A stretch of 64,000 nt of DNA from Syntrophaceae bacterium UBA6112 (GCA_002423465.1 DIWG01000018.1:12323-76322); one strand, 5' to 3'; counted from the first letter of the stretch, positions 2,151 to 42,229 are shown. Notes: generated by a model from the sequence alone, not told the origin. A program made the numbers and translations.

Positions 2151-2420
2151 AAGCCAATCCGGCTTTTTATTTTATCATGTCCTTACCCGTCTCGGCAACC
2201 GGAATCATCCTTTCCATGGAATCCGCCCCCGGAAAAGTTCTTTTTTTACAGTGGCATCCGCGGATGCCGCCGCCATTAATCGCTTGACAGGAGAGGGTCG
2301 ACCGGTTATTTTAGGGTCACCACGAGCGGACACCCCATTTCCAAACAGGGCTGGTAAACCCGGCAACTTTGAACCGTCGAGAGACGGAGCAGACCGAATG
2401 GGATCTTTCGTTCCCCCGCT

Positions 2421-3977
2421 GTGACATTGAGGCCCATGATCACATCGTTTTTGAAAAACAAACCCCGCCGTCGATCCTTGATCGCCACTCTGCTTGCGCT
2501 GGCCGTCCTGCTGCCGGCCTGGTGGTACTCCGGGCTTTGGCGGCAGGAACGGCTTCTCATCGAAAAACGGCTTCAAGTCGCCGACCTTCTGGAAGTCCAG
2601 GGCCGATCGCTCGGCACGGAAATCAAGAGCCGCCTGGCCATCCTGCAGGCGCTTAAGACCTTCTTGGTCGAACGCATCCGCAACGACCAGGAGATCGCTC
2701 CGGCCGAATTCACCGCCTTTGCGGCGGGCATCAGCAACGTTGCAAGCGGCGTCCGCGCCATTTCCATTGCCCCCGACGGGATCACCCAATTGATCTATCC
2801 GGGAGGGAGCACCGAGGGCCTTGCCGGACAGGACCTTTTCCGCGACGCCCGCCCGCAGATCCGCGCCGACGTTCAGCGCGCCGTCCGCTCGCGTCGAATT
2901 GCGATCAGCGGCCCTTATGCGCTCCGCCCCAAGGGACTGGGGCTCGTCGCGCGGCAAGCCATTTACACGGGGGACCATTTCTGGGGACTGATTTCCCTCG
3001 TTCTGGACGTCTCCTCCATTCTCACCGATGCGGGTCTGAATTCCCCGCCTCAAGGTCTGCAGATCGCCCTGCTGGACCGTTCCGGCCGCCTGTTGTCGGG
3101 GGGGAAAACCGTCCTGACGGGAAATCCCGTTTTTTTTCAAGTCAATATCACCGACGGATCCTGGAAACTGGCTGCCCTTCCCGCGGAGGGTTGGACCGCG
3201 GCCGTGAAGAAACCCCTCCTCCAGTTCCGCGGCATAACTTTGGCAATCACGATCCTGACGGCAATCCTGATCGGCCTGGCGGCCGGTTACCGGGCCCATC
3301 TGACCCAGGCCGTGCGTCAGCGTACCGGCGTCCTGCAGCGGTCGCTCACCGATCGCCGGGAGGCAGAGGAAAAACTGAACCGGACACTGGACAAACTTCG
3401 GCAGGCGATGGGGGCGACATTGAATACGCTGGCCCTAACGGTCGAAACAAAGGACCCTTACACGGCGGGTCATCACAAAAGGGTTGAGGATTTGGCGAGG
3501 ACAATCGCGACGGAGATGGGGCTCTCCGAAAACACCATTGACGGGATCCGGATGGCGGCCTCCCTCCATGATATTGGAAAGATCTCGGTGCCTGCGGAAA
3601 TCTTGAGCAAGTCGTTTAAGCTGTCGGAAACGGAGTTTCACCTGATCAAGACGCACCCCCAGACGGGGTATGATATCCTGAAACAGGTTGAATTTCCATG
3701 GCCCGTGGCGCGGATCGTCTGGCAGCATCATGAACGGCTGGACGGGTCGGGATATCCGCTGGGTTTGAAGGGGGAGGAGATTCTGCAGGAGGCGAAAATC
3801 ATGGCGGTGGCGGACGTTGTGGAGGCAATGTCCTCCAACCGCTCTTACCGACCGACGCCGGGGCTGAACAAGGCGCTGGAAGAGATTGAGTCTCAGCGGG
3901 GAGTTCTCTACGACTCGACCGTGGTCGACGCCTGTCTGTGCATCTTTAAAGAAAAAGACTTTCGGTTGGTTGTGTAA
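2421..3977 (+). CDS. HD-GYP domain phosphodiesterase/response protein with an N-terminal membrane-anchored periplasmic sensor domain
   Basis: The C-terminus has HHKRVEDLA, SLHDIGKISVP and HHERLDGSGYP (HD-GYP signature). Two hydrophobic segments flank a ~250-aa extracytoplasmic domain. The track start is GTG at 2421; an alternative ATG lies at 2436. Confidence 0.85.
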   Translation: MTLRPMITSFLKNKPRRRSLIATLLALAVLLPAWWYSGLWRQERLLIEKRLQVADLLEVQGRSLGTEIKSRLAILQALKTFLVERIRNDQEIAPAEFTAFAAGISNVASGVRAISIAPDGITQLIYPGGSTEGLAGQDLFRDARPQIRADVQRAVRSRRIAISGPYALRPKGLGLVARQAIYTGDHFWGLISLVLDVSSILTDAGLNSPPQGLQIALLDRSGRLLSGGKTVLTGNPVFFQVNITDGSWKLAALPAEGWTAAVKKPLLQFRGITLAITILTAILIGLAAGYRAHLTQAVRQRTGVLQRSLTDRREAEEKLNRTLDKLRQAMGATLNTLALTVETKDPYTAGHHKRVEDLARTIATEMGLSENTIDGIRMAASLHDIGKISVPAEILSKSFKLSETEFHLIKTHPQTGYDILKQVEFPWPVARIVWQHHERLDGSGYPLGLKGEEILQEAKIMAVADVVEAMSSNRSYRPTPGLNKALEEIESQRGVLYDSTVVDACLCIFKEKDFRLVV

Positions 3978-4085
3978 ACACGTGAACCCTGTCGGCTTGC
4001 CAAAAGTGTGGGGCTTTTGCCCAAACCGCCGCCGCGGTCACGTCAGGGGTTTGGGCAGACATTGAACGATACCAGGAGGAAGCGT

Positions 4086-4919
4086 ATGTTGGTCCGCTGT
4101 TGGGGCGCCAGAGGATCCATTCCGGTTTCCGGCAAGACGTATCTGCGTTATGGAGGAGACACCTCCTGCATTGAGATCCGCACCGCGGACAACCGCATCG
4201 TCATTATCGACGCCGGCTCAGGGATCCGGAGGCTCGGAAACCGCCTCCTTGCCGAAAAACGCCGCAACTATGCACTGATTTTCACCCACGCCCACTGGGA
4301 TCACATCATGGGCTTTCCCTTCTTCAAGCCGATCTACCTGTCCGGCACGCATATCAACGTGTTCGGTTGTCCCTTTGCCCAGGCCTCCGTCCGGAAAATG
4401 ATCTCCCACATCATGGCCCCTCCCAATTTTCCCGTGAATTTCGAAGAGATCAAGGCGAAAATCCGCTATCAGGACGCCTGTCAGGAAACGTTTCAGCTTG
4501 GGGGCCTGATGATCACCTCCATTCCGATCAGCCACCCAAACCAGGGGATGGGATACCGTTTCGAAGAGAGCGGGAAATCTTTCGTCTTCCTGACCGACAA
4601 TGAGCTGACCTACCGGCATCCGGGCGGCATGGCGTATGAGGACTACCTTGCCTTTGTGGAAGGAGCAGATCTTCTCGTCCACGACGCCGAATATCGTCCC
4701 CGTGATTACCGTCTAACCCGGACATGGGGCCATTCCGTTTACACGGACACGCTGCGTCTCGCCCTCGAAGGCGACGTCGGCCGTCTCGGCCTCTTTCACC
4801 ACAACCAGGAGCGGACGGACGAGGCCGTGGATGAGATGGTGGCGGACTGCCGGAGAATCATTACCAAACGTCCTCTGGAGTGTTTCGCCCTCCGCCAGGA
4901 CATGGAGATCATCGTCTGA
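4086..4919 (+). CDS. MBL-fold metallo-hydrolase
   Basis: THAHWDHIMGFPFF (HxHxDH motif). AGGAGGA RBS lies just upstream of the ATG at 4086. The track start at 4008 gives a basic N-terminal extension with no RBS. Confidence 0.8.
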   Translation: MLVRCWGARGSIPVSGKTYLRYGGDTSCIEIRTADNRIVIIDAGSGIRRLGNRLLAEKRRNYALIFTHAHWDHIMGFPFFKPIYLSGTHINVFGCPFAQASVRKMISHIMAPPNFPVNFEEIKAKIRYQDACQETFQLGGLMITSIPISHPNQGMGYRFEESGKSFVFLTDNELTYRHPGGMAYEDYLAFVEGADLLVHDAEYRPRDYRLTRTWGHSVYTDTLRLALEGDVGRLGLFHHNQERTDEAVDEMVADCRRIITKRPLECFALRQDMEIIV

Positions 4920-36171: not shown

Positions 36172-37521
36172 TCAGCGAAGCAGCAGCTCCCACAGAGGAC
36201 CGGGGCGACCGCGGGCATGCATCCGGGTCACGACCCGCTCCGTCTCTTCCCCGCCGTCCCCATAGACCCAGTTCACCCGGCCGCGCGCCTGGCTCTTGAC
36301 CCGGTCGATAATCGCTTCCGTTGTGATGCCGTTCGATCGATAGAAAACCGGCGAGAGCAGGTCCTGGTCCGGCCTGATCTGCCCCTCTTCCATGGCAAGG
36401 TCATAGAGCGGGGTATGCGGAAAGATCCGGACGCCGCACAGCAGAAAGAATGCCGCCTTTCCCAGCGCCTCCATACGGTTCATGGTTTCGTCCAGGCTGC
36501 GGGCGTCTTCTCCCGGCCCTCCCAGCAGGAAATAGTGGGCAATGTTCACCCCCGAGCGGCGGGCGCTCCCGTGGGCGGCAAAGACATCCTCCACATCGAA
36601 CGGCTTTCCGTACCGCATCAACTGAGGATCGCAAAGGGATTCCGTCCCAAACTCGGCATGGGTCAATCCGGCCTCGGCGAGGATGCCGTAATAGCCGTCG
36701 GGCGGGCGCGTCGGGGCAAGAAAAGCCCCCCAGGGAATGGTGAGGCCCCGGCGGCGAAAGGCTCTGGCGACGGCCAGGCTGTGGTCGACATCGGCATTGA
36801 ACGCGGAATCCGTGATGAAGAGGAACCTGGCGCCCATCTCCTGAAGTTCCCGGGCCTCCCGGGCAACCTCATCGGGAGGGACCAACCGCATTCGGCGCCC
36901 CTCGATATGGGGATAGGTGCAGTAGATGCAGCGGAAGGGGCATCCCCTTTTTGTCTGCAGGTTCAGGATCCCCCCCCGTTCGAGGTAGAAACGACGGTGG
37001 GCGTCCGCCGGCCGCATCCGCCTGGCGACGACACCCGTCCAAGGGACCGGATCCCGGATGGGTCCTCCCCGAATCACGATCCCGGGCAGAGCGGAAGGAT
37101 CGTCTCCCCTTTCGAGGGCATCCAGAAGGGGAGCCATATATTCCCCTTCCCCGACAACACCGAAATCGGCGCCCAGCAGAGACATCAATTCGCCGGGGAA
37201 AATGGAAAAACCGCTGCCGCCCAGTACAATCGGGACCCCGGTGCAACACCTGATGAGCCGGACCATCCTTTCATATCCCGGAACGAAACTTTTCACGGCC
37301 AGGGTGTCCACGTTGTCGATATTCCGGAGGGATATGCCGATCACCTCCGGGTTGATATCCCTCAGGTCGGTCTTGATCCGCTCCATCCCCCCCGCCACAT
37401 TCACGTCCAGAATTTGGACTTCATGCCGGGGCGTCAGGGCTCCGATGAGATAATCGAGGCCCAGGGGATAGACGGGATGCGGGGCGCGGGTCATATTGGC
37501 GGAAATAAGAAGAACTTTCAT
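36172..37521 (-). CDS. B12-binding domain radical SAM protein
   Basis: MKVLLISANMTRAPHPVYPLGLDYLIGAL (cobalamin-binding-like N-domain) and TKRGCPFRCIYC. GGTGGAG RBS precedes the ATG at 37521. The track start at 37638 adds an Arg/Gly-rich extension. Confidence 0.9.
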   Translation of the reverse strand: MKVLLISANMTRAPHPVYPLGLDYLIGALTPRHEVQILDVNVAGGMERIKTDLRDINPEVIGISLRNIDNVDTLAVKSFVPGYERMVRLIRCCTGVPIVLGGSGFSIFPGELMSLLGADFGVVGEGEYMAPLLDALERGDDPSALPGIVIRGGPIRDPVPWTGVVARRMRPADAHRRFYLERGGILNLQTKRGCPFRCIYCTYPHIEGRRMRLVPPDEVAREARELQEMGARFLFITDSAFNADVDHSLAVARAFRRRGLTIPWGAFLAPTRPPDGYYGILAEAGLTHAEFGTESLCDPQLMRYGKPFDVEDVFAAHGSARRSGVNIAHYFLLGGPGEDARSLDETMNRMEALGKAAFFLLCGVRIFPHTPLYDLAMEEGQIRPDQDLLSPVFYRSNGITTEAIIDRVKSQARGRVNWVYGDGGEETERVVTRMHARGRPGPLWELLLR

Positions 37522-37778
37522 AAAGTTAAAACTCCACCCCCTGTGACGGATCCACCGGGTCGGGGCAACCGCACCCCCCGGTCCCCAGGGGATATCCGAT
37601 TCACCGTCCGGATCCTGCCGCCGTCGCATCCCGGACAACCATGCCTCTCCAATCCATTCGCAACCGCAGCAAACCGAAGGTTTGCAGAAGAAACATCCTC
37701 ATTTCGGAAATTGGGTCATCATCTCGTCTAAAATGGCCTTCCTTCATATCCCAAAAGGACTTTCGGCGCCACAAAATT

Positions 37779-37786
37779 CAGGCGCA
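37779..37786. repeat. Target-site duplication, left copy (CAGGCGCA)
   Basis: An identical 8-mer lies immediately outside both terminal inverted repeats; the other copy is at 41016-41023. Confidence 0.8.
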
Positions 37787-37808
37787 GGTAGTGTCTCAGT
37801 TTGAAATT
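37787..37808 (+). repeat. Terminal inverted repeat (left end)
   Basis: ggtagtgtctcagtttgaaatt. Confidence 0.85.
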
Positions 37809-37888
37809 AAAATATTTACATTCAGGGAGACAAGAGATAGTATTTCCCATTATCAAGAGAAAAAGCTCAAAAACGAAGGGCCAACCTT

Positions 37889-38659
37889 ATGTTTTGGAGT
37901 TATTTACAGGCGGTGGTTATGAAGCAGTGGCTACCGCTTTTAATCGGATTTTTTGGAACTGTGCCGTGGTGGGGACGGGCACTTCTTTCTCAGCGACTTC
38001 AGAATATGGTCGATGGATATCTTAACCCATCAGCAATAAGATGGCTCGGGATTATAGCCATTCTTGCTTCGTTCATATTAGCAAATTATTTTGCATGGGA
38101 AGGTGAGCACAAAGAAGTCTCTAATTTATCATATAAATTAAATAAACTTGAAGTTGAGGCTACTCCGAATATCACCGGAACTATAGAACGTGTAATTATC
38201 TTAAAAGAAAGATTGCCAGAAAAAAATCTTAGAATTGACATAACGGCAACCCTGAGAAACGTTGGCGCTCCAAGTGCTGCTGAAGGTTTTCTATTAAAAG
38301 TATATTTGAAAAATGGGCAAATAATTACTGGTGAAAAAATCTTCCCATATAATAATCAAGAAACTCATTATGACAGTGGAATTGTAGAAACGATTAGCTC
38401 CGCAGATTTGCTTGATCGGAAGGCAACTCAACCAATTCCACGCGGGGGCATGATTATGGGTAGAATGTTTTATCGAGTAAATACAAGTATTGATTCTATT
38501 TCAGGTTCAGAAGCAACATTTGAAATAACTTTTTATGATATTTTAGGGAAAGAGATAATTATGAAAATCAAACCTGCGTTTAGAGACGCAGAGCCAATCC
38601 AGGCTTTCCCAGGGTTGGAAATGCCAAATTTAAAAAATATTCCAAAACCAAAGCCATAA
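37889..38659 (+). CDS. Hypothetical membrane-anchored protein (IS passenger)
   Basis: Two N-terminal hydrophobic segments (WLPLLIGFFGTVPWW and WLGIIAILASFILANYF), then a ~170-aa beta-rich domain. No motif recognised. AT-rich codon usage. An alternative start lies at 37919. Confidence 0.55.
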   Translation: MFWSYLQAVVMKQWLPLLIGFFGTVPWWGRALLSQRLQNMVDGYLNPSAIRWLGIIAILASFILANYFAWEGEHKEVSNLSYKLNKLEVEATPNITGTIERVIILKERLPEKNLRIDITATLRNVGAPSAAEGFLLKVYLKNGQIITGEKIFPYNNQETHYDSGIVETISSADLLDRKATQPIPRGGMIMGRMFYRVNTSIDSISGSEATFEITFYDILGKEIIMKIKPAFRDAEPIQAFPGLEMPNLKNIPKPKP

Positions 38660-38668
38660 TGTTCTAAA

Positions 38669-39499
38669 TTATTTTACCATTTTTAAAATATCTTCAATCT
38701 CCCAAACCCTATCTGCGATCCCCGCTTCCATCGCCGGGGTTACTCTTAGCGTCTTGTGAATCCTGCAAAAATTATAATGCATGAAATGAAGGGCAACGGA
38801 GTATTCAAGATTTTCAATCTTCTTGCTGAATCCATTGGTCAAGCGGGTAAATCTCCGCATTGACATCCGCATGGTTAGGTTTTGCCGTTCAACATAGCTT
38901 GTGGAAACGTCCTTCTGATCGGGGTTCCCGCTTATGCGCAACTTGTCCGCTCCGGTACATTCAGCGGGGCTATAACGGCGTTGATCGGTTGTTGATTCCG
39001 TTGATCCGTATGTCTTCACCAGCATCGCATAATCGATATCCCCTCCGAAAGCATCTTCAACGGCATTCAGGTAGGCCCGATGTCCATCCGTCGTAAGTTG
39101 CACCTTGTTCCTTAGGCGGCTTGCCAGATCCTTCATGAAGATTTCCGCAAAGGCCGCATCGCGCTTGCCAACCAGAAACGAGGGAATAAGTTTTGTATCG
39201 GCGCACATGGCCGTCCAAGTGTAAACGTCACCATAGCCAAATTCCCCTTTATGCTCTTCGGGAACATTCTTTTCTTTGCAGTAACAAAAATTCCATATCT
39301 CATCACATTGAATCCGTTTGCAGGTAAGATCACAAAAAGCCTTATGCTGATATACCCAACAAGCCGAGCCAACATCGACAAGGAGCTTCGTCACGGTGTT
39401 GATGGACACGCCGGTCATGCGGGTAATGGCTCTCATGCTGTTACCCTCGACCAGCATGCCGATGATTTGTGCTCTTTTTTCGATACTTAGCTTATTCAT
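38669..39499 (-). CDS. IS1-family DDE transposase (single ORF with N-terminal HTH)
   Basis: HTH segment IIGMLVEGNSMRAITRMTGVSINTVTKLL. The C-terminal YVERQNLTMRMSMRRFTRLTNGFSKKIENLEYSVALHFMHYNFCRIH is typical of IS1-type transposases. Confidence 0.85.
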   Translation of the reverse strand: MNKLSIEKRAQIIGMLVEGNSMRAITRMTGVSINTVTKLLVDVGSACWVYQHKAFCDLTCKRIQCDEIWNFCYCKEKNVPEEHKGEFGYGDVYTWTAMCADTKLIPSFLVGKRDAAFAEIFMKDLASRLRNKVQLTTDGHRAYLNAVEDAFGGDIDYAMLVKTYGSTESTTDQRRYSPAECTGADKLRISGNPDQKDVSTSYVERQNLTMRMSMRRFTRLTNGFSKKIENLEYSVALHFMHYNFCRIHKTLRVTPAMEAGIADRVWEIEDILKMVK

Positions 39500-39529
39500 G
39501 GCATCCCGTCTCCTGTTTCGTTGTGAACA

Positions 39530-39642
39530 TTATGCTTGAGCGGTTAAGAAATGTCAAGAAATATTTTTATTATATTTCGTTTTATGCTTGCATATAACCT
39601 TAAAAGACCTTTTATGCAAGCATAAATAAATAATGCTTGCAC
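39530..39642. promoter_or_regulatory. Cluster of four ATGCTTGCA-type motifs between the divergent transposase and P63C genes
   Basis: ttatgcttgag (39530), ttatgcttgcata (39582), its exact inverse ttatgcaagcata (39612) and taatgcttgcac (39631). Confidence 0.35.
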
Positions 39643-39694
39643 GTATCCTCTTTTTTTGATAAGAGGTAGTCATCAAAAAATGGAGGAAACAATC

Positions 39695-40711
39695 ATGCAA
39701 GAAGACATTAAAAAGGGCAGAGCTAAGGGTGGCATGGCAAGGGCGGCGAAGTTGACACCGGAGGAACGTAAGGCTATTGCACAAAAGGCAGCAAAAGAGA
39801 GATGGTCCATCGACGTACTAAGGGCCACTCATGGATCTTCCGACAGGCCATTAAGAATTGGAAGCTTAGAAATACCATGTTATGTTTTGTCAAACGGAAT
39901 GCGCGTCTTGTCTGGAAGGGGTATGCAATCCGCTTTGGCACTCGGCCAGCGCCATGGGGCCATTTTGAAGGAATTTATTGGCAGAAGTAGCCTAAAAGAT
40001 TTTATTAACAATGATTTAGCCATGGTCCTTACATCTCCTGTTAAATTTATAAGACCAGGGCGTGGTGGGAAGACCGCTTCCGGTTATGAAGCAACTATTT
40101 TGGCGGATATTTGTGATGTTGTTTTGGCTGCCAGAAAGGCCGGTGCCTTGTCTGGAAAGGAATTAGATGTCGCGGATCAATGCGAAATACTGGTGCGTGG
40201 TTTTGCGCGTGTTGGTATTATTGCACTTGTCGATGAGGCCACGGGTTATCAAAAAGATCGGGCAAAAAATGAATTAGCGAAAATATTAGAAGCGTTTGTT
40301 GCTAAAGAGCTTCAACCATGGGTAAAAACTTTTTCCGTAGAATTCTATGAACAAATGTTTCGTTTGCGTGGCCTTCAATTTCCGGGAAATGGCGTTAAAC
40401 GTCCGCAATATTTCGGACATCTTACAAACGATGTTGTTTATCGCAGGCTTGCTCCCGGAGTTTGGAGGGAATTAAAAGAGCAGGCAGAAAAAGACGAGAA
40501 GGGTAGGTTAAAACATAAGCTTCATCAAAAATTAACGCCCACCTTAGGACATCCCAAATTAAGGGATCTTCTAACCTCAATTACAACGATCATGAAGTTA
40601 AGCGAACAGTGGATAGACTTCAAGGGTAAGCTTGATAGGGTACATCCAGCATTTAACGAAACGATGTTGCTACCTTTTGACTTAGAAGGTGATACGGGAA
40701 AGGGAATTTAA
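39695..40711 (+). CDS. P63C domain protein (IS passenger)
   Basis: IALVDEATGYQKDRAKNELAKILEAFVAKELQPWVKTFSVEFYEQMFRLRG matches my memory of the phage-associated P63C domain. N-terminal basic motif KKGRAKGGMARAAKLTPEERKAIAQKAAKERW. GGAGGAAA RBS precedes the ATG at 39695. Confidence 0.7.
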   Translation: MQEDIKKGRAKGGMARAAKLTPEERKAIAQKAAKERWSIDVLRATHGSSDRPLRIGSLEIPCYVLSNGMRVLSGRGMQSALALGQRHGAILKEFIGRSSLKDFINNDLAMVLTSPVKFIRPGRGGKTASGYEATILADICDVVLAARKAGALSGKELDVADQCEILVRGFARVGIIALVDEATGYQKDRAKNELAKILEAFVAKELQPWVKTFSVEFYEQMFRLRGLQFPGNGVKRPQYFGHLTNDVVYRRLAPGVWRELKEQAEKDEKGRLKHKLHQKLTPTLGHPKLRDLLTSITTIMKLSEQWIDFKGKLDRVHPAFNETMLLPFDLEGDTGKGI

Positions 40712-40950
40712 GTTTCTTTATTCCACCTTGCGGAAGCCGCTTTTTTGGCGATCTCTGATCTCTGTTTGGGTGTAAGGCTTGCGGCCCTTGCCTTTCCGCC
40801 CTTTTTACCGCCAAGCCGCCCTAATTCAACGGCGGCAGGGTTCTTAGTCGATACTGGTTCTTCTGGCGGATTCTCATCTGTTGCTGCCTGCACGATAGCA
40901 TAGGCTAACTGATTTACATCCGCATGTTTTGGGATCTTGGCTTTTTTCAT
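40708..40950 (-). CDS. Small basic protein with a GGKARA...LTP.QR..IAKKAA.ARW motif (IS passenger)
   Basis: LGRLGGKKGGKARAASLTPKQRSEIAKKAASARW. The start at M18 (40950) avoids overlap with the right inverted repeat. The track start at 41001 would overlap it. Confidence 0.5.
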   Translation of the reverse strand: MKKAKIPKHADVNQLAYAIVQAATDENPPEEPVSTKNPAAVELGRLGGKKGGKARAASLTPKQRSEIAKKAASARWNKET

Positions 40951-40993
40951 GACCTGAGCGTAGCATAACCGCTCAAGCATTTCAAGCCCCATA

Positions 40994-41015
40994 AATTTCA
41001 AACTGAGACACTACC
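40994..41015 (-). repeat. Terminal inverted repeat (right end)
   Basis: aatttcaaactgagacactacc is the exact reverse complement of the left repeat. Confidence 0.85.
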
Positions 41016-41023
41016 CAGGCGCA
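41016..41023. repeat. Target-site duplication, right copy (CAGGCGCA)
   Basis: Identical to 37779-37786. Confidence 0.8.
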
Positions 41024-41094
41024 CTGATTTCAAATGGCAAGCAACATCCAATGAACCATATTCCATTTGACAGCCTTATGGGTAGAGGGTGGAC

Positions 41095-41946
41095 TTAAAC
41101 GGTTGATTGATTCAGCCTTTCCATTACCACTCGATCGATCAGATCCTCCAGAGAAAGGATTTGATACCCCTGCCTCTTCAGGCCGGAAACGATCTCCTCC
41201 GTTTCTCCAAGCCACTCCTCGATCCCTTCCCCGCCCTTCGGCGCGACGTCGTGCAGCAGGATGATGTCGCCGGGGCGGACCTTCTTCAGGATGATCTCCG
41301 CCAGACCGGCAATCCGCCGGTTGCCCCGGTCAAAGGCACGACAACTGAAATTCACGCAGTACATGCCGAGCTCCCTCAAGACCCCCGGCAGCCGGGAATT
41401 GGTGACGCCGACGGGAGGGCGGAAAGCCAGCGGACGGACGGCGAAGGCCGAAAGCAGATCCTGTGTGCGGGCAATCTCCTCTCGGAGCTTTGCCCGGGAA
41501 CGCAGCATCAGCAAGGGGTCATGGTGATAGGAGTGGTTTCCGAGGGTATGGCCCCGGGAGAGAATTTCCCGGATCAGCGCCGGATGCCGTTCCGCCCTTG
41601 CGCCGGCGACGAAAAATGTGGCCGGCACGCCATGCCGCCGCAGGAGCTCCAGCAACCGCGGGGTGACACCCGGATCCGGGCCGTCGTCGAAGGTCAGGGC
41701 CACCGCCCGGCAAACCGTTTCCCGCCGGCTGATCACGGGCAGGAAAAATCCAATACCGGGAAGAAAAGGGGCAACCAGGCAGAGGAGAATGAACAATCCC
41801 AAGGGGATAACCACCAGCGCCGGCTGGATCAACAGCATGAGGAAGGAGACGAAAAGGGCCGTCATCCCGGTGAGAAGAGCAGGCGAAAGCCATTCCCGCA
41901 CTCTGGGGACGGCCCTTCCCTTGACGGTGGAATTCCCAAACATCAT
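41095..41946 (-). CDS. Membrane-anchored polysaccharide deacetylase (NodB homology domain)
   Basis: ALTFDDGPDPGVTPRLLELLRRHGVPATFF and GNHSYHHD, with N-terminal TM helices. Confidence 0.85.
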   Translation of the reverse strand: MMFGNSTVKGRAVPRVREWLSPALLTGMTALFVSFLMLLIQPALVVIPLGLFILLCLVAPFLPGIGFFLPVISRRETVCRAVALTFDDGPDPGVTPRLLELLRRHGVPATFFVAGARAERHPALIREILSRGHTLGNHSYHHDPLLMLRSRAKLREEIARTQDLLSAFAVRPLAFRPPVGVTNSRLPGVLRELGMYCVNFSCRAFDRGNRRIAGLAEIILKKVRPGDIILLHDVAPKGGEGIEEWLGETEEIVSGLKRQGYQILSLEDLIDRVVMERLNQSTV

Positions 41947-42229
41947 CGGCGCCCTTTCGTCGCGAACCGGGTGATGTCCTCGATCGCGGTTCGGTCGCGG
42001 ACATCACATGATAACAATATGATATTATTCATATACGGACGATTCATCTCAGCACCCGCAACAGCATTAAACCGGAACCGTTCAATCGTCCATTCATATT
42101 TGTATTGATACACGCATTGTTTTGTATTATCAACCCAGCATGAATGAGCGACAACCATTCCGACCAGATTCCGACGGTCATCGCATACGGAAAGCGGCTG
42201 CGTTTCGCGGCCCGTCCCTGGAATAACCC

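Follow-up and report, generated by a model that had tools for sequence, protein, structure and literature searches.

A cargo-carrying insertion sequence distantly related to IS1 in the spacer upstream of a lipid gene cluster of Syntrophaceae bacterium UBA6112

We analysed a 64,000-nt stretch of DNA from Syntrophaceae bacterium UBA6112 (DIWG01000018.1:12323-76322; hereafter the window, with coordinates counted from its first letter) and find, with high confidence, that positions 37787-41015 are a real, intact, complete and single-copy insertion of a cargo-carrying insertion sequence (IS) from a family distantly related to IS1. IS elements that enclose passenger genes in one pair of inverted repeats (IRs), with a single IS transposase to move them, are known as transporter IS (tIS; IS6 review PMC7986276), and the window element is an ordinary member of this already known kind, here IS1-related. 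It is inserted in the spacer between a polysaccharide-deacetylase gene and a radical-SAM/lipid cluster. Its features, with IRL denoting the terminal inverted repeat beside a small core gene and IRR the one distal to it, are as follows.

37787-41015, minus (the transposase strand): whole element, 3,229 bp, delimited by its ends and target-site duplication
37779-37786, no strand: left copy of the target-site duplication, CAGGCGCA, the same octamer as at 41016-41023
41016-41023, no strand: right copy of the target-site duplication, CAGGCGCA, abutting the IRL end
37787-37808, no strand: IRR, 22/22 complementary to 40994-41015
40994-41015, no strand: IRL, the reverse complement of IRR
37889-38659, plus: orf256, 256 amino acids (aa), cargo slot 2; an orphan, from the open reading frame (ORF) call
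38669-39499, minus: transposase, 276 aa, a single ORF with an N-terminal helix-turn-helix (HTH) and a DDE domain, from profile matches and alignment
39529-39557, minus: promoter-like site of the transposase gene (TTGACA, 17-nt spacer, CATAAT; 11/12), from a promoter scan
39532-39546, no strand: operator-like half-site ATGCTTGAGCGGTTA, an exact 15-nt inverted copy of 40966-40980, overlapping the promoter spacer and -10
39583-94, 39612-23 and 39632-43, no strand: three ATGCTTGCA/TGCAAGCAT motifs, putative operators of the P63C module, in the divergent transposase/P63C intergenic region
39695-40711, plus: P63C-domain protein, 338 aa, cargo slot 1, Pfam P63C (PF10546)
40708-40950, minus: core small gene, 80 aa, product basic and all-helical (MKKAKIPKH...), starting 66 nt inside IRL, from the family alignment
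40966-40980, no strand: sub-terminal half-site ATGCTTGAGCGGTTA at nt 36-50, counted from the end of IRL, in front of the small gene

The 22-mer GGTAGTGTCTCAGTTTGAAATT at 37787-37808 recurs as an exact reverse complement at 40994-41015, and a search of the whole window with up to three mismatches returned just these two ends (2 matches, 0.00 expected from 100 shuffles); the chance that the CAGGCGCA octamers match at fixed positions is ~1.5e-5. The element takes its orientation from the transposase, which is encoded on the minus strand, and IRL is therefore its right-hand end in window coordinates. Both terminal repeats begin GGTAGTG, which fits the IS1 pattern GGnnnTG, and the duplication is exactly 8 bp, where IS1 makes 8-9 bp. 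GC content is 0.35-0.50 inside the element and 0.55-0.65 in the flanks. The insertion lies 72 nt past the deacetylase stop and ~265 nt from the radical-SAM ATG at 37521 (266 nt counted from the element's first base), with the deacetylase, the transposase and the radical-SAM cluster all on the minus strand. An initial annotation, made from the sequence alone, had described an intact IS with perfect 22-bp IS1-type ends, an 8-bp duplication and an AT-rich interior, 266 nt upstream of the first gene of the cluster, and on each of these counts its description holds. A composite of two IS copies is ruled out by the absence of internal end-like sequences at up to three mismatches. No other copy or fragment of the element was found within the 64-kb window, and an Rfam scan of 36500-42000 gave no match at E <= 0.1.

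The element can be read against a large set of relatives. One genome per species was scanned, giving at least 594 loci, of which 80 were kept; both ends were found in 59 elements from many phyla, the window element included, and all counts out of 59 below refer to these end-delimited elements. Their ends, GGTAGTGnnTCAGTTTGAA, also written GGTAGTG(G/T)(G/C)TCAGTTTGAA, are conserved (terminal repeat consensus GGTAGTGGgTCAGTTTGAAaTT), and 54 of the 59 are flanked by an exact 8-bp duplication. Gene order, read in the direction of the transposase, is constant: IRL, a gene of ~80 aa, a variable region, the transposase, an optional second variable region, and IRR. Lengths run from 1,336 to 4,969 bp. 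The minimal member (L067, 1,336 bp) has the small gene and the transposase as its only genes, and 58/59 elements exceed this minimal 1.3 kb. The initial annotation had pointed to an IS1 subgroup that reaches several kb through passenger genes, and the lengths and cargo of these relatives agree with it. The single-ORF 'ISMhu11' subgroup of IS1 in ISfinder spans 0.9-4.6 kb, with passenger genes in some members. It would share with the present family a single transposase ORF, a length of several kb (1.3-5 kb here) and passenger genes inside the IRs, and the window element may belong to it; the literature that we searched contained no mention of 'ISMhu11'.

Age and mobility of the insertion, and the neighbouring lipid cluster

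Relatives with an empty site were located via the flanking radical-SAM protein. In two of them (L091 and L093), in which the radical-SAM gene and its upstream spacer are 88-91% identical to those of the window, the target is uninterrupted, reading ...CAGTGATCCTGAATTTTGTGG... where the window has ...CAGTGCGCCTGAATTTTGTGG...; the predicted empty-site junction is ...AAAATTCAGGCGCACTGATTT.... The insertion is therefore derived and lineage-specific. The initial annotation had proposed a search for this empty site in related genomes and had named, as an outcome that would speak against a recent insertion, the same arrangement fixed and degraded in all relatives; these ~90% identical relatives have an uninterrupted site instead. 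The perfect ends and foreign composition further suggest that the insertion is young.

On this evidence the transposase acted at the two ends, cutting there and inserting the 3.2-kb unit as a whole in the deacetylase/radical-SAM spacer with duplication of 8 bp. The core of the element consists of the two ~20-bp ends, the ~80-aa basic helical protein just inside IRL and the single-ORF HTH-DDE transposase. Two slots, the gap between small gene and transposase and the region after the transposase, are permissive for cargo, here a phage-type P63C module with operator-like repeats and orf256, an orphan membrane protein. That cargo-laden members transpose as units follows from a sister element (small gene, P63C, transposase, HicB/HicA; transposase 74% identical to that of the window), whose 2,916 bp are 100% identical at three sites (L171 3095-6010, L172 3095-6010 and L173 965-3880) with 8-bp duplications that differ by site (AAAAAGGC, GATTGTCC and TGCGCGCG). 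Two of these sites are in phage-like neighbourhoods (Toprim/VapE primase, NinB).

The window copy itself is plausibly still mobile, given its intact DDE residues and a sister element that is demonstrably active. Its current mobility we only infer, because no second copy of the element and no same-strain empty site were found, which tells against movement of this particular copy. The alternative is that it is a fixed resident that no longer moves, either intact but silent or retained for useful cargo, and we regard this as possible, if rather unlikely. In all five assemblies of the strain, this locus is the one place where the exact transposase occurs; the five contigs, from four or five samples, share the same insertion at >=99.99% identity over 12.8 kb. 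The copy sits inside long contigs and is therefore probably single-copy, the empty-site 24-mer CAAAATTCAGGCGCACTGATTTCA has 0 matches in metagenome contigs, and an operator-like site over the transposase promoter (see below) is consistent with tight repression. Against a fixed resident stand the perfect ends and duplication, the intact ORFs and conserved DDE residues, and the very recent movement of a sister element of the same layout; moreover, the fixation says little, because the samples may all stem from related enrichment cultures.

A second question, raised by the initial annotation, is whether the insertion altered expression of the lipid cluster, either because it parts the cluster from transcription or activator sites further upstream or because it provides transcription directed outward. 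We consider this unlikely. The placement of the element between the deacetylase stop and the radical-SAM ATG, with transposase and cluster on one strand, would allow it, and in L093 a deletion at ~2274 has removed ~170 nt of the interval from target site to ATG, directly before the ATG, so part of the spacer is dispensable. On the other side, orf256 converges on the transposase gene, a weak terminator-like hairpin (38573-38592) follows the transposase stop, and the promoter scan found no promoter-like site facing out of the IRR end or within 37522-37786; a hybrid outward promoter at the IRR end was considered and rejected, none being evident by eye or by scan. A ~40-nt non-coding block beside the insertion (37745-37782, catatcccaaaaggactttcggcgccacaaaattcagg) also remains intact on the cluster side. 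It is almost invariant in L091 and L093, which are ~90% identical elsewhere, and has no Rfam match; it is possibly a promoter or regulatory site of the radical-SAM/lipid cluster. The deacetylase-radical-SAM spacer as such varies among relatives: besides the deletion in L093, in L092 (4212-5987) it holds an additional reverse-strand gene of ~1.7 kb with repetitive Gly/Asp-rich sequence.

Core genes and their promoters

The transposase is, on sequence comparison, a remote single-ORF relative of IS1 that belongs to a distant subgroup and not to classical IS1. Its catalytic residues, placed by alignment at D66, D138 and E204, are intact. The best NCBIfam match is IS1 (E 1.5e-14, 54 bits), ahead of the next model by nine orders of magnitude (IS6, 1.6e-5; IS1595, 1e-3). 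We also compared a profile of 22 relatives with a genuine copy of E. coli IS1A, with InsAB' rebuilt across the A6C frameshift; hhalign joined the two at a probability of 86% (E 5e-6), and the 163 columns that align collinearly include the HTH and the motifs DEIW/DEQW (DExW), TDG and ERQNL..FSK/ERHNL..FSK (ERxNL..FSK), the alignment starting past the zinc-finger region of InsA. 'IS1 family transposase' is the label given by JGI, NCBI or PGAP to many of its homologues, which number more than 8,000 clusters, and PGAP uses this family name for copies with 57-63% identity that are carried by plasmids of Acidiphilium, Mesorhizobium and Hoeflea. A search of solved structures with the transposase profile gave nothing meaningful.

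Several results count against the IS1 assignment. The NCBIfam score of 54 bits misses the equivalog cut-off of 100, and the Pfam DDE_Tnp_IS1 match (18 bits, over the C-terminal E motif) misses its cut-off of 24. Classical IS1 has insA and insB' frames joined by a programmed -1 frameshift and an InsA with zinc finger and HTH; set against IS1A InsAB' and in the model scans, the window transposase lacks the zinc finger and is read without a frameshift, and the element has no homologue of insA. The assignment accordingly rests on remote homology together with the ends and the duplication, and the 'IS1-family' label of the initial annotation stands in so far as IS1 is the best-matching family, though below curated cut-offs and without the classical organisation. 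The lack of these three features, with the weak matches to IS6/IS240 (Pfam, 21.9 bits, and the NCBIfam values above) and to IS1595, are what could be said for a transposase of another HTH-DDE family (IS1595 or IS6) with IS1-like ends by coincidence. We judge that very improbable: IS1 leads the NCBIfam models by a wide distance, the Pfam IS1 match spans the E motif, the alignment to InsAB' is collinear, the ends (GGTAGTG here, GGTGATG/GGTAATG in IS1A) are alike, the 8-bp duplication is typical of IS1, and the relatives are called IS1 family by PGAP and JGI.

The small basic gene is a core gene and not cargo, since it has a fixed place and strand in 58/59 elements (typically nt ~66-310 from IRL, on the transposase strand) and is the sole other gene in L067. 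The initial annotation had counted three passengers, of which two, P63C and orf256, survive; its four ORFs are present as described, save that the small one, open over 40708-41001 on the minus strand, has its true start moved by the family alignment to the ATG at 40950, giving 80 aa. That all three non-transposase genes are passengers, the small one a frequent hitch-hiker, would suit a gene with no known function and no similarity to InsA, but is hardly credible given its near-constant position ~66 nt from IRL, the variability of everything between it and the transposase, and the gene content of the minimal member.

At least 7,920 homologues of the small protein were found. Not one bears a Pfam domain or a genuine annotation of function, and those that have names are called 'hypothetical', apart from two evident misannotations in public records as 'methenyltetrahydromethanopterin cyclohydrolase' (P0136/P0151, JGI); a copy in the Mesorhizobium loti plasmid CP050295 (L086 2075-2284) is likewise misnamed, as 'histone H1'. 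In Pfam and NCBIfam the protein has no match to any family and no similarity to InsA, and a zinc-finger motif is absent. Its AlphaFold2 (AF2) model has four helices (pLDDT 74) and 0 fold matches in a PDB search, and a sequence search of solved structures with the small protein and the P63C protein gave nothing meaningful. Its C-terminal motif, GGKxGGKARAxxLTPxxRxEIAKKAAxARW, recurs at the N-terminus of P63C proteins. In several P63C elements, the window element (40708-40711) and L027, L039 and L063 among them, the two genes run towards each other and overlap by the same 4 nt at their stop codons, although their P63C proteins are only 46-65% identical.

The promoter-like site of the transposase gene is the strongest in the region and lies 30 nt upstream of the transposase ATG. 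Most family members align with the same layout in front of their transposase gene, TTGACA followed by ...CTCAAGCATAAT, the alignment reading TTGACA and then ...(ATGCTTGAGCG)CGCTCAAGCATAAT. In 42/59 elements, where 0.2 would be expected, the motif CTCAAGCATA (up to one mismatch) lies within 70 nt of the point where the transposase begins, often within a palindrome over the promoter spacer and -10, and many relatives have the full palindrome ATGCTTGAGCG/CGCTCAAGCAT at this promoter. At the other core gene, the half-site ATGCTTGAG returns in front of the small gene, 36-46 nt inside IRL; with up to one mismatch allowed and nt 23-70 from IRL considered, 17/59 elements have it where 0.5 would be expected, and the family consensus has TTGA at nt ~31-34 from IRL. 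The placement of the ATGCTTGAGCG half-site or palindrome on the transposase promoter, and probably on that of the small gene, points to a shared operator for autoregulation. One element-encoded DNA-binding protein, either the small protein or the transposase through its HTH, probably represses both core promoters, much as InsA does in IS1.

Compared with IS1A (InsA/InsAB'), the window element thus shares a DDE transposase whose HTH immediately precedes the catalytic domain and whose DExW, TDG and ERxNLxxR..FSK motifs are in collinear order, ends of the form GGTnnTG, an 8-9 bp duplication, a small gene by IRL on the transposase strand and, probably, autoregulation at its own promoters. It differs in its lack of a zinc finger, an insA homologue and a -1 frameshift fusion, in a small protein unrelated in sequence, in a transposase with a promoter of its own and with cargo between it and the small gene, in its length (3.2 kb against 768 bp) and in its scores below the curated IS1 model cut-offs.

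Cargo of the element and of its family

Both cargo genes of the window element, P63C and orf256, lie inside the IRs, as the non-transposition genes of a tIS do, which move with the IS. The P63C call of the initial annotation is solid, at 109 bits against a gathering cut-off of 26.1 (E 1.9e-31, residues 197-289), and the protein matches phrog_2384 over its full length (1e-109). For this protein there are 3,581 representative clusters. Homologues 45-52% identical occur in temperate phages, for example L0095 of 933W, in the nin region beside roi; they resemble the window protein in full-length homology, in an N-terminal GGKARA..LTxExR motif and in short repeats just upstream of the gene, whereas the window gene occupies an IS cargo slot and its repeats are ATGCTTGCA rather than the ACGTGCA of 933W. 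The AF2 model of the P63C protein is confident (pLDDT 82.7) and had no match in a PDB fold search, the best hit, DdrC (E 0.2, TM-score ~0.2), not being meaningful.

The ATGCTTGCA motif is found in 1-3 copies in the transposase-P63C intergenic region of 7/9 P63C elements, and anywhere in only 2/50 of the others. In 933W, three ACGTGCA/TGCACGT repeats (L089 4860-4900) precede the P63C gene. The parallel between these and the window repeats suggests that P63C modules carry their own operators.

By eye, the product of orf256 begins with two hydrophobic segments and is rich in beta structure towards its C-terminus. It has no Pfam, NCBIfam, PHROG or PADLOC match, only 2 homologues among 5.8 billion clusters (63% and 41% identity), and is a singleton among the cargo of the 59 elements. 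The homologue with 41% identity, the only distant one with known surroundings, lies ~0.7 kb from an IS1595-family transposase (L087 198-956 and 1638-2540), and more than one family of IS may carry genes like orf256 as cargo.

Across the family, cargo is hypervariable and often defence- or toxin-antitoxin (TA)-like. Cargo ORFs of 70 aa or more number 148 in the 59 elements, and 107 of these are singletons; an element with a transposase 90% identical to that of the window bears an AAA_15/AAA_21 ATPase as cargo instead. Recognisable cargo of this sort includes RosmerTA RmrA (E 2e-144), PD-Lambda-2_B-like HTH-M78 proteins, GmrSD/HEC-06, SocA/Panacea pairs (SocA_Panacea), RelA_SpoT, NYN, capP/capH-like HTH-M78 pairs, dCTP-deaminase-like proteins, methylases and ClpP-like SDH proteases. 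The defence or addiction role at which the initial annotation had guessed for the passengers fits the family in general, as far as its gene content indicates. A RES-Xre pair beside the Acidiphilium copy was rejected as cargo because IRR precedes the pair (L085, element 2267-4900). Two members have a Mutator-family transposase gene within their IRs (L051 4168-5466 and L081 7514-8821), an IS nested in the cargo slot.

P63C is the commonest family cargo (9/59). The P63C proteins share 26-65% identity, against 56-81% for the transposases, and the P63C carrier with the transposase nearest to that of the window (L005, 81%) has a P63C just 32% identical and in the opposite orientation. Since P63C divergence exceeds transposase divergence, these genes were probably captured several times.

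Relation to known systems and meaning for the family

Like other tIS, the family carries its cargo within one IR pair served by a single IS transposase. It is unlike the usual tIS in that cargo is the rule (58/59 elements longer than 1.3 kb) and is swapped rapidly at two fixed slots. Tn7-like transposons are reportedly carriers of defence systems, according to Benler et al. (bioRxiv 10.1101/2021.08.23.457393), and the variable cargo of the present family is likewise rich in defence and TA genes; the family differs from them in being far smaller, with one-protein DDE machinery, one to few cargo genes and no target-selection module. In the literature that we searched on IS passenger genes with defence cargo, we found nothing on IS1-like elements.

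These observations can be drawn into one joint reading, which we advance tentatively and think somewhat improbable as a whole. The small protein would be an unrecognised InsA-like core component, its basic helical hairpin being a module that may also form the N-terminus of phage and IS P63C proteins. Over both core promoters, ATGCTTG half-sites may serve as recognition sites for this hairpin module or for the transposase HTH; such half-sites would also stand before the P63C cargo, at a different spacing. The family would then be a shuttle for defence and TA genes, and P63C would play some unrecognised part in defence, in addiction or as a helper of the IS. For the cargo of the window element, a role in defence, addiction or interaction with phages is our best guess from its family context. 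Against such roles, none of the window P63C, orf256 and small proteins has a PADLOC defence match or a TA domain in Pfam or NCBIfam; the small protein, a putative DNA-binding repressor, also has no sequence or fold match to a known DNA-binding domain.

For this genome, the element is an ordinary IS insertion, and its local interest lies in a possible change in transcription of the lipid cluster. The wider results concern the family: a conserved small core gene, a putative shared operator, slots rich in defence- and TA-like genes, and repeated capture, in all probability, of P63C. The family is extremely abundant: its transposases form more than 8,000 clusters, and its loci number in the hundreds across Syntrophales, Acidobacteriota, Nitrospirota, Mycobacterium, rhizobial plasmids and others. 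The element boundaries can be called to the base, and it therefore offers a clean natural catalogue of small mobile cargo. As much of this cargo is defence- or TA-like, the unannotated remainder (P63C and orf256-like orphans) forms a shortlist of candidate defence or addiction genes, and the conserved small protein is a candidate regulator or cofactor of transposition. If the joint reading is true, the family would be a dedicated shuttle that carries defence or TA modules of one to three genes across phyla, and its repeatedly and independently captured P63C genes would have an unrecognised function in defence, in addiction or as helpers of the IS itself.

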